NCBI GenBank assembly: GCA_019358935.1
Contig: JAHHIK010000127.1
Span: 1 to 22,040 of the forward strand
Source of the DNA: Tolypothrix carrinoi HA7290-LM1
GTDB lineage: Bacteria > Cyanobacteriota > Cyanobacteriia > Cyanobacteriales > Nostocaceae
Reading direction: 5' to 3'
Length of the DNA stretch: 22,040 nucleotides
Shown piece after piece: positions 13,463 to 22,040 of this stretch. The stretch's first letter is position 1. Every line of letters starts with the position of its first letter. The translations under genes and the position numbers were made by a program. The notes beneath the pieces are model-generated. The model was given only the letters and a program-made list of their open reading frames with translations, was not told the DNA's origin and did no database searches.

Positions 13463-13780
13463 GTGGAAGAACAAATACGATGCTTTGTAATTAGCCGCAA
13501 AATTCTGCGGCAATTTTGTGAAGCACACGCAGATGCTTGTGATGCGCTTTACGATTGGTATAAAGTCGCTACTAAAGCAGAATGGAAAAATCTTGTTGAT
13601 CAACTAGCAATTTACATAAAAGCTGAAGCGGTTGGCAACTTCACTGTTTTTAATATAAAAGGAAACCACTACCGTTTAATTGTCGATATTGTTTACTCAA
13701 GCCAGAGAATCTATATCAAATACGTTCTGACTCATGCTGAATACGATAAGGATAAATGGAAAGATGACCCGTACTTTTAA
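13463..13780 (+). CDS. higB: HigB-family toxin (start region irregular)
   Basis: VISRKILRQF, VFNIKGNHYRLI and THAEYDK motifs. Confidence 0.85.
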   Translation: MEEQIRCFVISRKILRQFCEAHADACDALYDWYKVATKAEWKNLVDQLAIYIKAEAVGNFTVFNIKGNHYRLIVDIVYSSQRIYIKYVLTHAEYDKDKWKDDPYF

Positions 13781-14162
13781 TCCTGAATTTTATGGTCAAT
13801 TACTAGCCAAGTATCAGCCCAAAACAATTACCACAGAAGAAGAGAACGAGCAAGCGATCGCTCTCGCTCAAGATTTAGAACATCGTCCTAATCGAACCCC
13901 GGAAGAGGAAACGCTTTTAGAACTTTTGGTAACACTAATCGAAAAGTTTGAAGAAACTCATTACCCAATCCCTCAAGGTACACCCCATTCGATGCTACTA
14001 CACTTGATGGAAGCGCGGGATATTGATCCAAAAGCATTAGTTGGGGTAATTGGCTCATTGGAAACTGTTTTTGAAATCATTAATGGCGAAAAAAATATTA
14101 GTAAATCTCAAGCAAAAGCGCTTGCTGAATTATTTAAAGTCAATGAAAATTTGTTTATATAG
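13764..14162 (+). CDS. higA: HigA-family antitoxin (HTH)
   Basis: LELLVTLIEKFE and LLHLMEAR...EIINGEKNISKSQAKALAELF; overlaps the higB stop. Confidence 0.88.
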   Translation: MTRTFNPEFYGQLLAKYQPKTITTEEENEQAIALAQDLEHRPNRTPEEETLLELLVTLIEKFEETHYPIPQGTPHSMLLHLMEARDIDPKALVGVIGSLETVFEIINGEKNISKSQAKALAELFKVNENLFI

Positions 14163-14241: not shown

Positions 14242-14713
14242 ATGAATGAGTTGGTTCCTAAGTTACAAGTAATAAATGTTAGTAAGTCCTATGCTAATTA
14301 TTTGGCAAATAATCGAGTAAAAATGACGATTCAGCGGGGTGAAATTCATGCTTTGTTGGGACAAAATGGAGCGGGTAAAAGTACTTTGATGAAGATGATT
14401 TACGGGTTGGTGCGTCCGGATGCTGGAGAGATTTTTTGGGAGGGGGAAAAAGTTAATTTTAATAGTCCAGCACAGGCAAGAATGCTTGGTGTGGGTATGG
14501 TGTTTCAGCACTTTTCTTTGTTTGAAAGTTTGACTGTTACGGAAAATATTGCTTTGGCACTTCCGAAGGGTGATTTCTGAAGATTTGGATGAGTTGTTTG
14601 TTTTATGCGATCGCCTGGGTGTAATCTACAAAGGACAGCTTTCTCCCCTAAAGTCCATACAAGAGACTAACCGAGATGAAATCGGGCAATTAATGGGGGG
14701 AATTGGCGCATGA
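14242..14713 (+). pseudogene. Nucleoside/sugar ABC ATPase with large internal deletion
   Basis: N-terminus GQNGAGKST and VFQHF. From about 14570, in another frame, comes the family C-terminus VISEDLDELFVLCDRLGVIYKG...EIGQLMGGIGA* ending at 14713. Confidence 0.9.
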
Positions 14714-14748: not shown

Positions 14749-15045
14749 TTATCCTTCAGGTGTCCATTTTCGACTACATTTTAATAAATCGCCTTCGACT
14801 TTGTAATCACATTTTTCCAAAAAGGTTTGTCCTAAAAGACCTGTTGTTCTTTCTGGTGCGATCGCTACCAATACATTATCCACTTTTGCCCCACCAACTT
14901 CTACCGAATTAACAAAACCGACACCCCATTCTACTGTTTGGTTATTTGCCACTGTGAATGGTATTTTATCTATTACTTGCACTTTCAATGCATTTGCCAT
15001 CTTTTGGGTAATAACGGTAGCGCCAGCGCCGGTATCCAAAATCAT
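14749..15045 (-). pseudogene. Retropepsin-like aspartyl protease C-terminal fragment
   Basis: ILDTGA catalytic motif and GLLGQTFL. The 5' side abuts permease sequence on the opposite strand with no promoter or N-terminus. Confidence 0.75.
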
Positions 15046-15676
15046 CGGTGCGAATCAAGTCGCTACCGGTTTAGCCCTGACTATTTTTGCTTCGGGACTC
15101 AGTGCTTTTGTCGGTGCTGACTATGTAGGCAAAACAATCACCGGACTGCAACAAATGAACAAATCAATACCTCTATTGAACCAGGATATTGTAGTATATT
15201 TATCAATCATCTTGGTGATTTTAGTATCATGGTTTTTGCGAAAAACACGGTCAGGGTTGGTGCTGCGAAGTGTGGGTGAATCTCCAGAAGCAGCGGATGC
15301 TTTGGGTTTGCCTGTTGTCAGAGTGCGCTATTTTGCGGTAATGTTTGGTGGAGCGATGGCTTTCTTTAGCGCATTTGTTATCTCTCGCTTGCGTATACGC
15401 CGCTGTGGGCGGAAAATATGACAGCAGGACGAGGATGGATTGCGATCGCTCTCGTAGTTTTTGCCACCTGGAAACCGATTAAAATTCTCTTGGGTGCTTA
15501 CTTATTTGGCGGCGTAAGTGCGATACAGTTGATTGTGCAAGGACTGGGATTTGATATTTCTCCTTATCTTTTATCTGCGTTGCCCTACTTAGCTACTATC
15601 GTGGTATTGGTGATTATCTCACGCGATGCCACGCGCATTCAACTAGTAGCACCCGCATCTTTGGGTGAACCTTTTC
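15046..15676 (+). pseudogene. ABC nucleoside permease, 5'-truncated, frameshifted near 15380 and interrupted at its 3' end by the element
   Basis: ANQVATGLAL, GLVLRSVGESPEAADALG, AYTPLWAENMTAGRGWIAIALV and APASLGEPF. Confidence 0.9.
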
Positions 15677-16878
15677 ACTCTAGATAAATCGTTTTGACTA
15701 ACTCTTTAAATAGTAGCTTTGCAGCTTTGGCGCTAATACGCGATCGCACTAATCGAATCGGACGCCCCGCCGCTTTTTCAGCATCCAACTGAGAACCCAG
15801 CGCTGCACCAATCTCATTATCAAGACGGCAGCGCTTAACCTCGATGCGGGTGAAAACCCATTGCCAGAAAGCAATACGGCACAAATCAGAACCACCGACA
15901 ATTTTAATTTTACTTTTGTCACCGCTTGCTTCTAGGGACGGTGCAAGCCCTAGAGACTTCTGAAATCGGCGTAACGAAAGGTAGCGTTTAGTTGGCTTTC
16001 CAGACTTTCGACCCTTGCTAATTCTTACCTCTGGCTTACCGTCAGCACCAAAGTAATTTTCCAAGGGGTAAATTTGACTGAGGATAATTGCCTCTAATCG
16101 CAACCCGAAACCAAAGGTTTTAAATACCTGGCGATAAGCCGTAAATTTCGGAGCGGTCAAAAGCTGCTGTAGTTCGACCTCAATACTGTGTTCTTCTCGC
16201 TGTAAGTCACATAAACGTCTTGCGTGATGCCGAACTGTTTCAGTAATGTCCAATCCAGCAGAGCGATCTAATATCGCGTCGTATCGTTTGATGAATGCGT
16301 TCCCCACACAACCACCCCCACAATAAGGGCACGTCACCATCAATTGCCCGTCGAGAATTTACGTGTGCGACTTCTGGGAATTGCCAAGCTAAGTCTTGAC
16401 GCAAACGATTGATAATTGGCGATTGCACCCGGTTGAGGTGAGCAAGTCGCAACACCAATTCTCTAATGCGGGTTGTGGTGAAATCGCGAATTTGTACAAA
16501 GCGCCTGGGGGAATCGAAATAGTCAAAGTAGTAACAGGCGAGTGCTAGTGCGTCGGCATCGTCATCTTTGTCGGGCAGACTTAATTGGTGTTCCCGGTAA
16601 TTTCTCAACTCTTTGTGTCCCACAAGTCTGACCTCGACCCCGGTACGAGCCAAGTGTGTTCCCCAAAGTTTTGAGTAATTTACACCAGTCGGCTCCATGA
16701 GTGCAATATCAGGATGCAGCGCCAGCAGTGCTTTTATTCCCTCGCTGTTGGCGCTAAACGACATGAACGGACATTCATAGTAAAATTGACGAGGATCGCT
16801 TGGCTTGCTTTCGAGCAAGCACGCTCTAACTGAGGACTTGCTAATATCAAGCCCCAAAATTCTTTTATTCTCTTGCAT
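15675..16878 (-). pseudogene. IS110-family DEDD (bridge) recombinase, about 400 aa, split by one frameshift near 16295
   Basis: LGLDISK, MEPTG and KDDDADA in the RuvC-like domain; GLAPSLEASG serine loop in the C-terminal domain. The two ORFs join at WLCGER / KRYD. Confidence 0.88.
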
Positions 16879-16909
16879 TGGGTGTGGTTGTTGGTTATTA
16901 ACCCCGTAT

Positions 16910-17112
16910 AAAAAGCCTGCGAATCACCCAAAAGCACGTAGCCTAACTCACTCTTAAGGCTGCGTCAAAACGGGAACCTTGACGCTACGAGGCAAGCTGT
17001 AGAAAGTGCAGTAACCGAGCTTGTGAAAAGGTAAAAGCAGTAATGCTTGATTCGTCCTGAAAGCCCTAAATTACTGCACTACTTACAGGCGAATGATTTG
17101 GACTCGATCCGC
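16910..17112 (-). ncRNA. Putative IS110 bridge RNA
   Basis: A 10-bp stem AGUGCAGUAA/UUACUGCACU encloses an internal loop with UCAGGACGAA and ACCUUUUCAC, the latter matching junction 15669-15678. A second domain holds AGAGUGA matching the element end. Outer stem GCCUGU/GCAGGC is followed by a U-tract. Confidence 0.8.
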
Positions 17113-17163
17113 GACTCCCAATATGGGAGTTTCGCCAGTTTTTTAGTCCGGCTCGTCAGGCGG
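17109..17163 (-). ncRNA. Type I hammerhead ribozyme
   Basis: CCGC-CUGACGA-GCCGG(ACUAAAAAA)CUGGC-GAAA-CUCCCA(UAU)UGGGAG-UC^GCGG. The full conserved core and three stems are present, with predicted cleavage between 17113 and 17112. Confidence 0.92.
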
Positions 17164-17164
17164 T

Positions 17165-17356
17165 TTACCTAAATTGCTCGTGAAGTATCGCCTCGGCATC
17201 TCTTACAAAGCCTTGCGCTTTTTGATAAAGTTCTGAGTTTGGGAACTCTTCTAAACTTACAATTTCTAAAGCCTTATCAATTAAAGCTTTGGAATGCTGA
17301 CAAGAGTGCCAAATAAGATAAAAATCCCAACGCGGGATCTGAGTGTAGATCGTCAT
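17165..17356 (-). CDS. Hypothetical protein (63 aa)
   Basis: ATG directly follows the upstream stop; last ORF before the ribozyme. Confidence 0.7.
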   Translation of the reverse strand: MTIYTQIPRWDFYLIWHSCQHSKALIDKALEIVSLEEFPNSELYQKAQGFVRDAEAILHEQFR

Positions 17357-17581
17357 TCATAGCTGTTGGCTAATTTGTGCATAGGCGTTAATCATGTCTT
17401 CACGTTGTTTTGGAGTCATTTGTTTAAATTGTTCATCTGCTCTATCAGATAAATACTGCATCCAATAATCTAGAGTTTGACTGCTGTTATGTGCGATTAA
17501 TTGACAGGCAATTCCGGTGAGCAAGGAATTAGTCAGAAACTCTTCCTTGTCCATTACGATTTCATCGTTTTCTATTCGCAT
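17357..17581 (-). CDS. Hypothetical protein (74 aa)
   Basis: TAATG coupling with the upstream ORF. Confidence 0.7.
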   Translation of the reverse strand: MRIENDEIVMDKEEFLTNSLLTGIACQLIAHNSSQTLDYWMQYLSDRADEQFKQMTPKQREDMINAYAQISQQL

Positions 17582-17772
17582 TAAAATCCCTCTGGAACGT
17601 CATCATCTTTGATTACGGGCGGGTAAAGTTGCGCCCAGACAAAGGCTTTCAGTTCCTCTCCAGCCAGGTGAGGGTCTTCCCCTTCGCTAATAATGGCGAT
17701 CGCTTCAAAAGTTTCGCTCTGATAATTCCCCAGGTTTTTTACTCGCTTGTAAGTGATAGTTTCGATTTTCAT
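17581..17772 (-). CDS. Small phage-like hypothetical protein (MKIETITYKRVKNLGNYQSE...)
   Basis: The NLGNYxS motif and acidic DDDVPxxF tail resemble small phage early proteins; start set at ATG 17772. Confidence 0.7.
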   Translation of the reverse strand: MKIETITYKRVKNLGNYQSETFEAIAIISEGEDPHLAGEELKAFVWAQLYPPVIKDDDVPEGF

Positions 17773-17847
17773 GGTGGTGATAAAATACACTTGTCTGAAT
17801 TGTCAAAGGCGATCGCACTCTCACACAAGGGCGCGATCGCACTTAAA

Positions 17848-18384
17848 TTACCATCCCTGTTTTTCTCCTTCCTGCAACAGCTGTTGCAATACCTGTTTAC
17901 CCCTCTCCCAGTTCCTTCCTCCCAGTCCTAAAACCGACTCAATAATGTAAGTCTCGGACTTCCCAACTTCCATCAAACTTTTCACAGCAATATATAGCTG
18001 TTTTTGGGAAGTGTCAGTGGAAGTTTCAACCGGATGCTCGGCTGATGGCTCTTGCACCAAGTGTTCTAGGGATTTTTCTAGTTCCTGCCTAACTTCCGGG
18101 CTGTAAGTGGGCGTAACTAAGTACATTTCTTTTAATGCCTGCTCTTGCGAGTAAGCCTGCAACGACAAATCAACTACCTCCATCTCCTGATTCATTGCAG
18201 CCATTGCACCGCGACGCGCTTCTTGCAACACCAATTGACGACTATAACGCACTGACTCAATTGATGTTGCAATTGCCACAACATGAGCCACACCTTTACC
18301 AAACTTTCCTATTGGGGCAAGTGCAACCAGCCAAGCAACGGCGGCAGTGGCAAGTAAACTATTTGCTCTTATCCAAGTAACCAT
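17848..18384 (-). CDS. Hypothetical membrane-anchored coiled-coil protein
   Basis: N-terminal hydrophobic segments and helical C-terminus; overlaps the upstream gene. Confidence 0.75.
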   Translation of the reverse strand: MVTWIRANSLLATAAVAWLVALAPIGKFGKGVAHVVAIATSIESVRYSRQLVLQEARRGAMAAMNQEMEVVDLSLQAYSQEQALKEMYLVTPTYSPEVRQELEKSLEHLVQEPSAEHPVETSTDTSQKQLYIAVKSLMEVGKSETYIIESVLGLGGRNWERGKQVLQQLLQEGEKQGW

Positions 18385-18638
18385 TGCAATACCCCTCCAG
18401 TTATCAAGGCTATTTTGATGGCGATTAACAATCCGTAATAGTCCTGTTGTTTGAGTTTGAGGTAGCCAGCAATGGCATCGTCAGCTAACCAAGCCATTGC
18501 TGTTAAGGCAAATAAAACAATTTGGATTGCAATTGAGGAATAGCGCAATGCAGGATGCAATGAACCAACCCACACGATCGCGCTCTCAGTGATGCACCCC
18601 AACAAAAACCAGCAAGCCAGATGCATCACCTTGACCAT
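18369..18638 (-). CDS. Small hydrophobic membrane protein (about 3 TM)
   Basis: Three hydrophobic stretches; stop/start coupling at 18638. Confidence 0.72.
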   Translation of the reverse strand: MVKVMHLACWFLLGCITESAIVWVGSLHPALRYSSIAIQIVLFALTAMAWLADDAIAGYLKLKQQDYYGLLIAIKIALITGGVLQWLLG

Positions 18639-19150
18639 TAGTAGCGCTCCTTCGCCTTAGCTTTGAGTTCTTCAATGCGCTGTTGCGCTCCTGCATCAGC
18701 GCGGTCTAGCCCGTTGTTCATGCGAACGTATTCGGGGCGTTGCGCGTGCAACTTCTTACCCAATCGGGTGTTTGAGCGTAGCTTGGTTAATTCGCTCTCT
18801 GCCACGTTGCCCTGATACTTTCGGTGAGCGACATGCACCGTTGCATCGGCTTTTTCAATCTTGCCTAAAGATTTGTAAGCGCGTTGCGATTGCCTTGCAC
18901 CTTCAGTTTTCTCTGTTGCAAGTCTTTTCAGGGCATCGGCTTCAGGTTTATTGAAGTATCTTGGTTTTTCAACAATCGGCGCGGTGCGAATGCTTTCCCA
19001 AGTGCCGGGGTTAGTGGGGTTGATAACTTCGGGGTTGGTTGGTTGTAGCACCACATCTTTATTAATGGCATGACCCCCAGTAGTGAGCGTACTACTGCTA
19101 CTAGATTTATTCCCCTTTATCCGGTCGGTGATTCTTGCTAAAATTCCCAT
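18638..19150 (-). CDS. Basic helical hypothetical protein (170 aa)
   Basis: GGAG RBS upstream; operon position. Confidence 0.75.
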   Translation of the reverse strand: MGILARITDRIKGNKSSSSSTLTTGGHAINKDVVLQPTNPEVINPTNPGTWESIRTAPIVEKPRYFNKPEADALKRLATEKTEGARQSQRAYKSLGKIEKADATVHVAHRKYQGNVAESELTKLRSNTRLGKKLHAQRPEYVRMNNGLDRADAGAQQRIEELKAKAKERY

Positions 19151-19162
19151 AGGTTCCGTCTC

Positions 19163-19414
19163 CTAATTGCACAAGGTTTTTTTGACTTCTGAAAGCTGTT
19201 TGGCTTGGGCTTTGAGATGTTCAATCTGGGTGAATTCTGTTGATTGATGCACGCTGATTCCCCCAATTGCCAAGCCAGCAACGAACAGCAACACCGCTAT
19301 GGTCAGTAGTGGTGTTGTTTGTTTTGGGGGTTCAACTTCAGGTGGTAACTGAGGATGCAAGTACCCAGTAAAGGGAACTACAACCCGCGATTGGTGATCT
19401 TTAGCTTTCTCCAT
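19163..19414 (-). CDS. Single-TM hypothetical protein
   Basis: One TM helix (LLTIAVLLFVAGLAIGGI); overlaps the upstream gene. Confidence 0.7.
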   Translation of the reverse strand: MEKAKDHQSRVVVPFTGYLHPQLPPEVEPPKQTTPLLTIAVLLFVAGLAIGGISVHQSTEFTQIEHLKAQAKQLSEVKKTLCN

Positions 19415-19850
19415 CTGGCAGCCTCATATAGTTTGGGAGTAGCGAGAAAGTACCAATAGATAAGGCGTTTTGAGTGCTTTGCTCAATTAGGGTTTTCTCC
19501 GCTTCAGTCGGATTGGTTCGCATTTGCTGGATGCGTCGAACTACACGAGTTGGTAACTCTTGCCAAAAGCGCTGTGCATAGTAGCTAGCAGCATCGTCGA
19601 GCAAGGTTTCGATTAATGTGTCGGCTTCGGGTGAAGCGTCTTCGGTTGCACTGATTGGGCGGGTTTTTAGAAACTCTACACCAGTAGAAGTCCAGAGCTT
19701 GCGACCGTCTGGTTCGATGACGAAGTGTAGGTTTTCAATAAACTTGCCAGGGTGACGGCTCATCCAGCTACGAATAGTCCCTTCTGGGATGCCTGTAACT
19801 TCAGCCGCTTCTGGGGTGGTGTATTTTTTATCGGGTTGTTTGGCTGGCAT
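19401..19850 (-). CDS. MerR/Xis-like HTH DNA-binding protein
   Basis: YTTPEAAEVTGIPEGTIRSW...GRKLWT winged-HTH pattern. Confidence 0.75.
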   Translation of the reverse strand: MPAKQPDKKYTTPEAAEVTGIPEGTIRSWMSRHPGKFIENLHFVIEPDGRKLWTSTGVEFLKTRPISATEDASPEADTLIETLLDDAASYYAQRFWQELPTRVVRRIQQMRTNPTEAEKTLIEQSTQNALSIGTFSLLPNYMRLPDGES

Positions 19851-19954
19851 TTTCTACGCTGGGGTTGTTTTGATTTATCTCATCTGCCCAAATAATTAGC
19901 CCCCGTCTATCAAGTTCTTTCAAGCTTCTATCGTTAATTTCTTCAACAATAAAA

Positions 19955-20212
19955 TCAGGCAGGATGCGAATAATTAAGCGAGTAAGGTGTTGGAGGATTT
20001 CCATAATTAGTTTTCAACTTTGGCTTACAAGGTTCTCCGTCTTCGTCTACTGCTTCAGCAAAGTAATAAGGGTCTACATCCTCTGAGTGGACTTGACCAA
20101 CCTCGCAGTTATATACAAACTCTCCTGTCGTCAAAGTGTCGTAAACGTTGATAGACTGCTCTGGATGCCACTTTTCCAGAGCATCTTCCAAATATTCGCC
20201 TCTTATTTTCAT
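19955..20212 (-). CDS. Acidic hypothetical protein (85 aa)
   Basis: AAGGAG RBS before ATG 20212. Confidence 0.7.
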   Translation of the reverse strand: MKIRGEYLEDALEKWHPEQSINVYDTLTTGEFVYNCEVGQVHSEDVDPYYFAEAVDEDGEPCKPKLKTNYGNPPTPYSLNYSHPA

Positions 20213-20451
20213 TCGTATATTCTCCTTTTTACGTGTTGGTGAGCAGATTTTGGGCTTGTTCGGGGGCAATTGGAACTAACTGAAAGTGCTTTAAAGCTAA
20301 TTCGAGTTGGACACTTTCGACGCTGGGGCGCAAATCTCACTCGCTTAACTGCTGGCAGGTCTTTAAAAAGCACTACGGGCTAGCAGGCTGCCATCTCTGC
20401 TTGGTTTGCGGTTGGGGAGCAATTTAGTTTTGTCTTTACGAATCTAATGTT

Positions 20452-20479
20452 AGTATAATGCAAAGACATAACCTGTCAA
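20452..20479 (-). promoter_or_regulatory. Sigma70-type promoter for the leftward operon
   Basis: TTGACA-N16-TATACT on the minus strand. Confidence 0.7.
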
Positions 20480-20532
20480 CAGTTTTGTATATACAAAAAA
20501 ATTTTGTAAAGATAAAATGGGGCTATAGTTCA

Positions 20533-20919
20533 GTGAAAACGAAGAATGGCACGACCCAAGACGCTAGCGGACGACGCAAAAACAGTAAACGTAAGAATGA
20601 GCCAGTACGACTGGGAGAATATGGACAAAATAGCCCAAATGAGGGGACTGAGCAGGTCGGAAATGCTGCGCTTGATAGCACAGGAGAAGATACCGCTTGG
20701 TCAGATAGCCACAGAAAAGCTAATCCTGGGAAAATCCTTGAGCGTCTCGAGCTGATAGAAAAAACTTTTTTATCTTATGTGCAGGGACATCAGCAGCGTC
20801 TTGAGACGCGACTAGACGAAAGCAAGACCATAGAAACTATTTTCAAAGACGAAGTCGCGGCGCTCAAACAAGAAATTTATCATTTAACTTCGGACATTCC
20901 CGAAGACCATACAGAATAA
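20533..20919 (+). CDS. Coiled-coil hypothetical protein overlapping the RHH gene in another frame (start uncertain: ATG 20458 or GTG 20533)
   Basis: Protein-like helical C-terminus GKILERLELIEKTFLSYVQGHQQRLETRLDESK, with the stop directly followed by a terminator. Confidence 0.6.
   Translation: MKTKNGTTQDASGRRKNSKRKNEPVRLGEYGQNSPNEGTEQVGNAALDSTGEDTAWSDSHRKANPGKILERLELIEKTFLSYVQGHQQRLETRLDESKTIETIFKDEVAALKQEIYHLTSDIPEDHTE
20546..20755 (+). CDS. Ribbon-helix-helix (CopG-like) regulator
   Basis: MARPK...TVNVRMSQYDWENMDKIAQMRGLSRSEMLR pattern. Confidence 0.8.
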   Translation: MARPKTLADDAKTVNVRMSQYDWENMDKIAQMRGLSRSEMLRLIAQEKIPLGQIATEKLILGKSLSVSS

Positions 20920-20952
20920 AGCCGTCCCCGCCTTGCGGTAGGACGGCTTTTT
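20918..20952 (+). terminator. Rho-independent terminator
   Basis: AAAGCCGTCC...GGACGGCTTTTT. Confidence 0.8.
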
Positions 20953-21019
20953 GATGGGTGCGATCGCCATCGAGGAGTGCGATCGCGTCCAATAACTAAT
21001 ACCCATTTAACCAAAACCT

Positions 21020-21271
21020 ATGAAACAAACCAGAAGAAGCGCACTTCATGAGGCTGCCCGGTTAAGCCCACTTTTCCAAGCAACAGAAATAGCGGGAGTC
21101 GAACTAACTAAACTTATCGACTTTATCGAATATCACAACCCGGACATAGACAGAGCCACTGCCACATTGACCGCCGCATTCGTCTTGTCCGAACTACCCA
21201 CTTTTCTTCTGCACAGCCCAAAAAATATGCAGCGGTTAAGCGCGATCGCACTCTGGTTTTCTCAAAGATAA
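21020..21271 (+). CDS. Hypothetical protein (83 aa)
   Basis: ORF bounded by two hairpins. Confidence 0.6.
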   Translation: MKQTRRSALHEAARLSPLFQATEIAGVELTKLIDFIEYHNPDIDRATATLTAAFVLSELPTFLLHSPKNMQRLSAIALWFSQR

Positions 21272-21278
21272 AAAATTA

Positions 21279-21320
21279 AAAAGCCCCCCAGAACTTTAGC
21301 AAAGACGGGCGGCTTTTATT
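21279..21320 (+). terminator. Possible terminator
   Basis: AAAAGCC...GGCTTTT with an imperfect stem after the stop. Confidence 0.5.
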
Positions 21321-21422
21321 AAGTTGATTGAACTATAGGTACTTACGTATCTGCTTAATCCGCTCACAAACCGCTTTCAATCACGCTCTTAATCGCTTTT
21401 ATAAGAAGAATGCAAACTTCTG

Positions 21423-21500
21423 CAATCACGCACTTACTTTGTACAATCACGCACTTACTTTGTACAATCACGCACTTACTTTGTACAATCATGCACTTAC
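21423..21500 (+). repeat. 21-bp direct repeat array CAATCACGCACTTACTTTGTA (3 perfect plus a partial copy), iteron-like
   Basis: Units start at 21423, 21444, 21465 and 21486; the array ends 4 bp before ATG 21505. Confidence 0.9.
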
Positions 21501-21504
21501 AATT

Positions 21505-22040
21505 ATGCCACAAAATCAATTAGTTTCTTTCCCCAATCGTGAAAATAAAGTTTCAGTAAAGTACAACAAACCTCATTGCATTATCCCCGTATCAGACATT
21601 ACATGGATAACGCAACAAGTAAAAGCAGTTCAGACATTGTGGAATGAATGTTGGGTATCAGACCCATTTGGCAGTCGATGGGAGAAGCTATCAACCAACC
21701 TCACAGAAACAGCATTTAGGTTAGCTAGAAAGATTTTATACGCAGCTGGGCTATTTGAATTTAAGCGCGATACCTGCATACATGACAGTCGAAAAACAGC
21801 GGGCTGGTTGGTAATTAATCTTCATGGCGCTAGAAGAATTAAAGACTTTTGGTGCAGCGAAGAAACTGAAACGACATCCGACATAAACACGGCGACATCC
21901 GACATAAACACGGCGACATCCGACATAAACACGGCGACATCCGACATAAACACGGCGACATCCGACATAAACACGGCGATATCCGACACAAAATCAACGG
22001 TGGAAATTGTTGAAACCCCTGAATTTTCAAGCGTTTCAGA
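21505..22040 (+). CDS. Putative replication initiator (wHTH-like), partial at window end
   Basis: Manual translation MPQNQLVSF...WNECWVSDPFGSRW...AFRLARKILYAAGLFEF...WLVINLHG is open to the edge and has upstream and internal 21-bp arrays. The function is inferred. Confidence 0.65.
   Translation, partial: MPQNQLVSFPNRENKVSVKYNKPHCIIPVSDITWITQQVKAVQTLWNECWVSDPFGSRWEKLSTNLTETAFRLARKILYAAGLFEFKRDTCIHDSRKTAGWLVINLHGARRIKDFWCSEETETTSDINTATSDINTATSDINTATSDINTATSDINTAISDTKSTVEIVETPEFSSVS
21872..21992 (+). repeat. Intragenic 21-bp array CGACATCCGACATAAACACGG (5 perfect plus 1 degenerate)
   Basis: Units start at 21872, 21893, 21914, 21935, 21956 and 21977 and encode TSDINTA repeats. Confidence 0.92.

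Follow-up and report, generated by a model that had tools for sequence, protein, structure and literature searches.

A conserved hammerhead at the start of an IS110 bridge RNA suggests that the guide is cut from a long mRNA in cyanobacterial prophage-like elements

Introduction

The bridge RNA of IS621 is transcribed from a junction promoter, as described by Durrant 2024 (PMC11208160). Bacterial hammerheads have been reported near prophage integrase genes, with cleavage of polycistronic transcripts, by Perreault 2011 (PMC3088659), where their biological role is called unclear. That dataset includes six cyanobacterial type I matches (Cyanothece PCC 8802, Arthrospira, Microcoleus), given as coordinates without gene context; some of these may be unrecognized members of the family described here. 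Filamentous phages with IS110-family integrases (Thermus Zuza8, Zuza27 and phiOH16, Neisseria Nf) have also been described (PMC11437467). Each component of the system discussed below, whether the hammerhead close to a prophage integrase (PMC3088659), the bridge RNA or the IS110 integrase of a phage (PMC11437467), is therefore already known. A preprint on COMPASS (10.64898/2026.10.21.760802) covers both bridge RNAs and a divergent hammerhead, and its accessible text handles the two separately. In the open-licence PMC and bioRxiv literature we found no description of a hammerhead coupled to a bridge RNA; the original prediction likewise knew of none.

We analyzed a stretch of 22,040 nucleotides from Tolypothrix carrinoi HA7290-LM1 (assembly GCA_019358935.1, genome size 7.96 Mb; contig JAHHIK010000127.1, positions 1–22,040, forward strand), which we call the window. 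The original prediction had placed in it a hammerhead that cuts an IS110 bridge RNA out of a polycistronic transcript, so that self-cleavage takes the place of a dedicated promoter. What can be computed from this reading, a covarying hammerhead, a bridge RNA and a distant left end, speaks in its favor. Since the guide RNA begins right where the hammerhead is predicted to cut, it is probably excised from a long mRNA and not transcribed from a promoter of its own.

Results

The hammerhead in the window

The features of the locus are collected in Table 1. The motif quoted in the original prediction is found on the minus strand, beginning one base past the TAA of the ORF at 17356–17165. Three helices of 4, 5 and 6 pairs surround a core that contains every base of the hammerhead definition (C3, U4, G5, A6, N7, G8, A9; G12, A13, A14; A15.1–U16.1; H17; PMC3088659), and stem I is open, which makes it type I. 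A search of the 7.96 Mb genome with a descriptor that checks the stems gives three matches, and IS110 paralogs lie downstream of two of these. At the stem lengths of the window locus the descriptor has no match in any of four shuffles of the genome, and at a looser setting the four shuffles give 0, 1, 3 and 2; the bare core pattern without stems is at chance level (5 matches, 5.4 expected). An Rfam search of the window, which had been suggested as a check, returned no hammerhead match.

Table 1. Features of the locus; coordinates refer to the window.
Feature	Position	Strand	Basis or remarks
Type I hammerhead	17109..17163	-	Sequence, descriptor and shuffles, family covariation, fold of 55–62 nt
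Hammerhead stem I, CCGC (17163-17160)	17163-17160/17112-17109	-
Hammerhead core, CUGACGA	17159-17153	-
Hammerhead stem II, GCCGG/CUGGC	17152-17134	-	5 pairs
Hammerhead GAAA	17133-17130	-
Hammerhead stem III, CUCCCA/UGGGAG and A15.1–U16.1 pair	17129-17115	-
Predicted cut after GUC triplet	17113/17112	-
Bridge RNA 5' hairpin, loop GUCCAAA	17089..17112	-	Starts at base 1 of predicted cleavage product
Loop II pseudoknot partner in family, GAGU	17105-17102	-	Family covariation
Target-binding domain	16997..17088	-	Consensus fold, match to own flanks, family covariation
Left target guide and core, AGGAC-GAA	17058-17051	-	Matches own flank
Right target guide, ACCUU-UUC	17032-17025	-	Matches own flank
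Donor-binding domain	16901..16993	-	Consensus fold; pairing judged by eye
Left donor guide, AGAGU-GAG	16954-16947	-	Pairing judged by eye
Right donor guide, GGGUGAUUC	16929-16921	-	Pairs with left end GAATCCCC, one bulge or mismatch; judged by eye
IS110-family recombinase, frameshift-split	15675..16878	-	ORFs 16878-16240 and 16343-15675
Right end: left donor CTAGAGT, core GAA (15676-15674)	15669..15683	-	Followed by host flank AAGGT (15673-15669)
Nine co-oriented cargo ORFs	17165..20269	-	Gaps -16 to +104 nt; putative polycistronic precursor
Best sigma70-like site, TTGACA-16-TATACT, 11/12	20452..20479	-	Candidate operon promoter; consensus match only
Divergent cargo ORFs	20458..22040	+	20458-20919, 21020-21271, 21328 to contig end

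The predicted position of the cut stands. The accompanying claim that it falls about 20 nt before the bridge-RNA fold does not: the distance is 0 nt, and the base after the cut is base 1 of the bridge RNA's 5' hairpin. Nor is the proposed extension of stem I (AUUUAGG with CCAAAU) conserved, as the mean best duplex over 70 loci is 3.07 compared to 3.00 in shuffled sequences; CCAAAU sits in and beside the loop of the 5' hairpin.

Loop II of the window copy is an A-run that lacks the family's ACUC, leaving only a degenerate 4-nt alternative pseudoknot, and this copy is probably a decaying member of the family. In ViennaRNA folding, which takes no account of pseudoknots, the probability of stem I is 0.85 for a transcript of 62 nt, 0.07 at 70 nt and 0 at 100 nt. 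With the predicted fold gone in transcripts longer than about 62 nt, the RNA would need to cleave itself rapidly, while transcription is still under way.

The bridge RNA and its recombinase

The gene 234 nt downstream of the hammerhead belongs to the IS110 family (Pfam DEDD_Tnp_IS110, PF01548, E 4.9e-08; Transposase_20, PF02371, E 0.0065, is below the cut-off). It contains the motifs GLD, MEPTG, DKDDDADA and EASGD, of the DEDD type with a serine, and the serine is presumed to be catalytic by analogy. A frameshift near 16297–16289 splits the gene in the window and in the copy on contig C98, and the recombinase is intact in 61 of 66 hammerhead loci. Its nearest named homologs are in Tolypothrix, Hassallia, Nostoc, Calothrix and Microcoleus, and the clade comprises 449 representatives at 50% identity; a phmmer search against PDB chains gave no match.

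In the consensus fold of the RNA past the hammerhead, two variable segments lie in a large internal loop, and a second domain contains conserved segments. In 34 of the 57 loci with a right end (66 were parsed), the right guide perfectly predicts the five bases after the right end TAGAGT-GAA, compared to a mean of 0.79 when shuffled. The window's own guides match as well: ACCUU-UUC predicts AAGGT, which is the actual flank, in the 3' end of a plus-strand ABC permease gene, and AGGAC-GAA matches the left end TAGGAC-GAA-TCCCC on contig C59, to which the other half of the permease target site also maps. By its guide–flank covariation, this RNA is a genuine IS110 bridge RNA, as had been proposed. 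The target site is empty in L112 and L114, two of four same-genus loci with the target gene (L115 was not parsed). At the same permease site, L113 (G010:C532) carries another sequence with the same right end and no recombinase in the contig's first 19 kb, possibly a non-autonomous or deleted element.

The donor guides match CTAGAGT-GAA-TCCCC, with one bulge or mismatch, in all 10 of 10 two-ended elements; since donor guides and element ends are both conserved, this is complementarity and not covariation. Within the genome, paralogs on C49 and C12 have matching flanks or left ends (C12 only partially), and the right flank of C98 is mismatched. The C98 copy (G000:C98:22721-24407) combines the window's guides and frameshift with a different right flank and with an upstream gene and right end like those of C12, and would appear to have arisen by recombination or as a chimera of the assembly. 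A second donor-like site, TACAGT GAA TCCCCAG, occurs 138 nt inside the left end (G000:C59:51696 and C47:58969), with similar sequence on several contigs. In L151 and L208 (G084), the RNA after the hammerhead has repeated CACCC-TT-AGAC/AGTC motifs without the usual donor loop letters, which from its sequence looks like a divergent bridge RNA architecture.

Conservation of the hammerhead

Among 89 non-redundant loci chosen by the recombinase alone, 74 have the hammerhead. A separate set, class-wide and from metagenomes, comprised 29 loci that could be assessed and six more without a gene start or upstream DNA; the hammerhead is present in 21 of the 29, down to ~28% identity. Pooling into a curated set, from which loci found through the RNA model were excluded, gives 85 of 96 loci: 74 with a perfect core, 7 with one mismatch (L048 was dropped from this class as spurious) and 4 by eye. 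The other 11 have a long hairpin (7 loci) or neither (4). The descriptor for this set has a false-positive rate of 3 in 1000 random windows. An earlier strict descriptor found 41 of 100 loci, missing variants with a bulged or branched stem II, and a looser one (100 of 110) mislabeled L177 and L103, which are rejected as hammerheads. Because the loci are related, the set is rich in Nostoc, and descriptors were loosened and tuned after the family had been seen, these locus counts describe rather than test.

In agreement with the prediction that homologous recombinases have a covarying hammerhead, stems I–III and the pseudoknot are, in an alignment of 54 sequences with short stems II and III, paired in 89.3% of 1066 cells, with 119 double changes compared to 38 in shuffled alignments; slid controls are 28–42% paired. 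The core bases are invariant or nearly so across the family while the stems covary, and the only cleavage triplets seen are GUC, GUA and AUC, all of which are permitted. Rfam models matched 3 of 10 hammerhead-bearing loci in a search of 17 homolog loci, each below the gathering score (RF00163: L185, 32.5 vs 34 bits, and L196, 29.2 vs 34; RF00008: L179, 27.2 vs 48.5). Although this places the motif outside the curated Rfam hammerhead families, its core and topology are those of a hammerhead.

A pseudoknot between loop II and the tail 8–12 nt past the cut is 85.7% paired in the family alignment. At least four of its pairs can form in 56 of 74 sequences, compared to 31.5 when the tails are swapped, and complementarity is shorter than 4 nt in the other 18; according to Perreault 2011 (PMC3088659), contacts of this type speed hammerhead cleavage. 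This argues against the idea that the motif is kept for a non-catalytic role, as a DNA structure or a protein-binding site, or that the ribozyme is inactive in most members, as do the near-invariant core and the permitted triplets. The equilibrium folding of long transcripts, which disfavors the hammerhead, would fit such a role, as would a core mismatch in 8 of 96 loci and an insertion of 30–60 nt in a Nostoc subgroup, but on balance we consider it very improbable. The insertion lies between the core and stem II and has an extra hairpin containing GCGATCGC (L057, L059, L061–L063, L068–L070, L073, L075–L080, L084 and L097).

With prophage hammerheads that segment polycistronic RNA already known (PMC3088659), a simpler reading is on offer, in which the hammerhead is an ordinary ribozyme of that sort that ends the cargo mRNA or tunes the recombinase, and the bridge RNA is adjacent by accident and works uncut. 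The position of the motif would suit this reading, as in 51 of 70 loci a co-oriented upstream ORF ends no more than 10 nt away, compared to 10 of 252 control positions. In 14 of the 70 (L012, L016, L039, L040, L051, L059, L060, L069, L080, L091, L097, L102, L105 and L109) the UGA of the CUGA core is itself the stop codon of the upstream ORF, so that a terminating ribosome would sit on the ribozyme. Moreover, removing the IS621 bridge RNA's 5' stem loop is reported to lower recombination only slightly (PMC11208158). However, the genes that flank the known prophage hammerheads vary according to PMC3088659, whereas here the partner is constant. A covariance model of the RNA has 18 independent matches in 11 of 150 other genomes of the phylum, and in 16 of these the same recombinase starts 265–470 nt downstream; one of the remaining two is cut by a contig end and the other has no recombinase match. 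In the genome of the window, all four matches of this model precede IS110 paralogs, with no hammerhead found elsewhere in it. Together with the structure of the product end and its preservation by unrelated hairpins (see below), this makes the segmenting reading unlikely. A paralog at G000:C49:56758-57010 has lost the 5' half of the hammerhead and has a broken recombinase, and its guides still match its own flanks.

The 5' end of the predicted cleavage product

If the guide is cut out of a long mRNA, the product would begin with a hairpin. This 5' hairpin is 85% paired in the family, with 24 double changes compared to 13.5. Bases one to three past the cut find their partners in the hairpin's 3' strand in nearly every sequence (54, 51 and 54 of 54), which speaks against the segmenting reading. 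The hairpin is the dominant predicted fold from base 1 in only 38 of 67 products. The hairpin and the hammerhead are mutually exclusive since the hairpin uses the same 5' strand as stem I.

The seven curated loci with a long hairpin have it, with an internal loop, in the hammerhead's slot. In 10 of 10 hammerhead-less loci examined, the hairpin begins 0–4 nt past the stop and carries its internal loop on the 3' arm; the lower stem has 7–11 pairs, and the 5' strand of the bridge RNA's first hairpin is sequestered. A hypothetical cut in the 3'-arm loop would free the same 5' hairpin within 0–4 nt of the new end, so these unrelated replacements preserve the product end, which again argues against an incidental neighbor. 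L086 keeps the hammerhead's loop II letters. Rows with hairpins stand beside rows with hammerheads at several places in a quick recombinase tree, in which the count of changes ignores ungrouped rows, several hairpin rows are on long branches, and the number of replacements is not fixed. Rfam found no ribozyme at the replacement hairpins of seven loci.

The sites in T7 early RNA are examples of nicking by RNase III, and the stem-length geometry of known sites forms part of the background here. By analogy, the replacement hairpins may be RNase III-like processing sites: at internal loops the enzyme is able to nick a single strand (Nicholson 2014, PMC3867540), and the internal loop of the replacement hairpins could likewise restrict cleavage to one strand. 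The host genome has three genes with an RNase III domain. The slot occupied by either hammerhead or hairpin looks like a processing site.

Element ends, promoters and cargo

A left end with a 5/5 match to the left guide was found in 10 of 16 long loci with a parsed guide, 6.6–15.9 kb upstream of the recombinase, for a total element length of 7.8–17.2 kb. Among 47 loci with 1.9–8 kb of upstream DNA there is one perfect left end, at 6.6 kb. The element of the window extends past the contig end, and position 51558 of contig C59 holds its left end (TAGGAC GAA TCCCC); at least 6.37 kb and a further 364 nt on C59 belong to this copy. The far end had been predicted to lie more than 5 kb away behind cargo, and the left end is in fact over 6.3 kb distant. 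The genome has numerous copies or remnants of the element family (G000 contigs C12, C21, C30, C33, C45, C49, C55, C98, C102, C145, C147 and C178), with right ends beside recombinase fragments and several left ends near contig ends.

Because the left end is many kb upstream, a junction promoter of the IS621 type cannot make the bridge RNA. A forward sigma70-like site is present at 1 of 10 rebuilt element junctions, a scan that did not take in the window's correct junction, and in most elements the genes beside the left end point away from the recombinase. The bridge RNA could instead have its own nearby promoter, either non-sigma70 or inside the last ORF, with the hammerhead only trimming a leader or readthrough. 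Cyanobacteria have several sigma factors that fall outside a sigma70-like scan, a 10/12 sigma70-like site is present at 18017–17989, and a terminator-like hairpin, at chance level, lies at 17340–17322 inside the last cargo ORF. Against this, the consensus scan found no minus-strand sigma70-like site between 17165 and 16879 (from the ORF stop to the recombinase start; 9 sites were found in the scan, 8.3 expected by chance), the sequence upstream of stem I is variable coding sequence, and the cargo ORFs are tightly packed. A separate promoter for the bridge RNA therefore seems quite improbable to us.

Eight of the nine cargo ORFs have homologs in related elements, and the one at 19850–19401 has a weak HTH match. 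Across elements the cargo includes a repressor, a short tyrosine recombinase, an ATPase, a tail-like protein and, in some, an amidase endolysin (the amidase family is present in 4 of 27 long loci). Genes of the lysis, repressor and receptor type include an Amidase_3 endolysin in L131, and an HTH_3 repressor and an F5/8-type tail-like protein in L137. The rep-like ORF at 21328–22038 of the window contains in-frame 21-nt tandem repeats (21872–21992 and 21402–21510) whose copy number differs between paralogs. On the other side of the locus, within an ABC transporter cluster, are a HigB-HigA-like toxin–antitoxin pair (13463–14162) and genes that appear fragmented (14242–14580 and 14954–15687).

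A conserved module of uncharacterized proteins recurs in distant families. In L137 it consists of proteins of 273, 191 and 600–1200 aa, the last Pro-rich (L137:14768-15589, L137:15688-16263 and L137:12090-14765), which have many cyanobacterial homologs and no Pfam or PHROG family and are candidate virion proteins. The two module proteins that were folded gave predicted structures with pLDDT of 87 and 90. For these two, Foldseek returned nothing at E 0.001 or better and a VIA search gave best Z scores of 5.9 and 4.6, where lack of a match does not equal a new fold; the ESM Atlas yielded no usable match in capsid identification. With no clear solved-fold match for the two folded proteins, and no recognized capsid or inovirus match for the module, the evidence reaches "prophage-like" only. 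No relative of the element was found in IMG/VR or among GenBank phages, and two plasmid records match the family.

It is tempting to speculate that the elements are proviruses of an undescribed cyanobacterial virus group, with unrecognized virion folds, a reprogrammed RNA-guided integrase, a ribozyme-switched guide and several swaps between ribozyme and RNase III. Under this reading the uncut ribozyme would hold the guide's 5' hairpin open and the cut would release the active guide, and through the maturation slot, integration or excision might be synchronized with expression of the operon upstream. Taken as a whole, we regard it as tentative, with somewhat less than an even chance of being right.

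Discussion

The consensus and covariation of the hammerhead, its fixed place, the covariation of guides with flanks, and the ends and size of the element come directly from the computations. From these we propose the following mechanism for the integration module of an 8–17 kb prophage-like cyanobacterial element in which an IS110 bridge recombinase would act as the integrase. The bridge RNA and recombinase would form the tail of a polycistronic transcript. As the polymerase passes the last cargo stop codon, the hammerhead would fold, helped in most members by the pseudoknot between loop II and the 3' tail, and, judging from its conserved core, would cut after GUC. The freed 5'-OH strand of stem I would then refold into the predicted, covarying 5' hairpin of the bridge RNA, presumably a functional one, giving the guide RNA and recombinase mRNA an exact, structured 5' end. 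The product of the proposed cut would also be the recombinase mRNA, and the proposal covers the 5' end of the guide, not its 3' end. The guides would direct recombination between the donor CTAGAGT-GAA-TCCCC and a genomic target that, given the covariation, could be reprogrammed. In some lineages a hairpin in the same slot could be nicked by host RNase III. For the reading as a whole, in which a polycistronic transcript is cleaved as it is made, the product refolds into the 5' hairpin and recombination benefits, we put the probability at roughly three in four.

A bacterial hammerhead family would here have a fixed partner and a job that can be tested, the making of a guide RNA. If true, an RNA-guided system that matures its guide with a ribozyme of its own would exist in nature; engineers add such ribozymes by hand, with HDV at the 3' end in the work described in PMC11208160. 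The family would also illustrate how a bridge recombinase can move 8–17 kb of natural cargo once it is independent of a junction promoter. It adds a divergent group of recombinases whose guide code is simple and readable, and it indicates an uncharacterized family of cyanobacterial prophage-like elements.

Similar to the filamentous phages described in PMC11437467, the elements are of virus size and carry at one end an IS110 gene thought to serve integration and excision. They differ in having an amidase endolysin, a short tyrosine recombinase and the conserved module without capsid or inovirus match, and the portion of that paper considered here makes no mention of a ribozyme or of bridge RNA processing. 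With the prophage hammerheads of Perreault 2011 (PMC3088659; RF00163, RF03152) the motif shares the full core, type I topology, in the family a pseudoknot in the stem I/II region (degenerate in the window copy), and a prophage-like setting in the vicinity of an integrase. In contrast to those, it is paired in a fixed manner with one recombinase and guide RNA, a strand of its stem I doubles as part of the guide's 5' hairpin, and it scores below the Rfam gathering threshold.

The recombinase and its RNA are closest to IS621 and the IS110 group as described by Durrant 2024 (PMC11208160) and Hiraizumi 2024 (PMC11208158). Shared are a DEDD RuvC-like and a serine-bearing domain, and an upstream RNA with a 5' stem loop, target- and donor-binding loops and guides that match around a short core. 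The core is the 3-nt GAA here and CT in IS621. The RNA is located in the left end in IS621, whereas here it is internal, 6.6–15.9 kb from the left end, and no junction promoter is apparent (a sigma70-like site at 1 of 10 junctions). Finally, unlike IS621, the elements described here have a hammerhead or a long hairpin at the 5' end of the RNA, an extra hairpin in the donor domain and a length of 7.8–17.2 kb.
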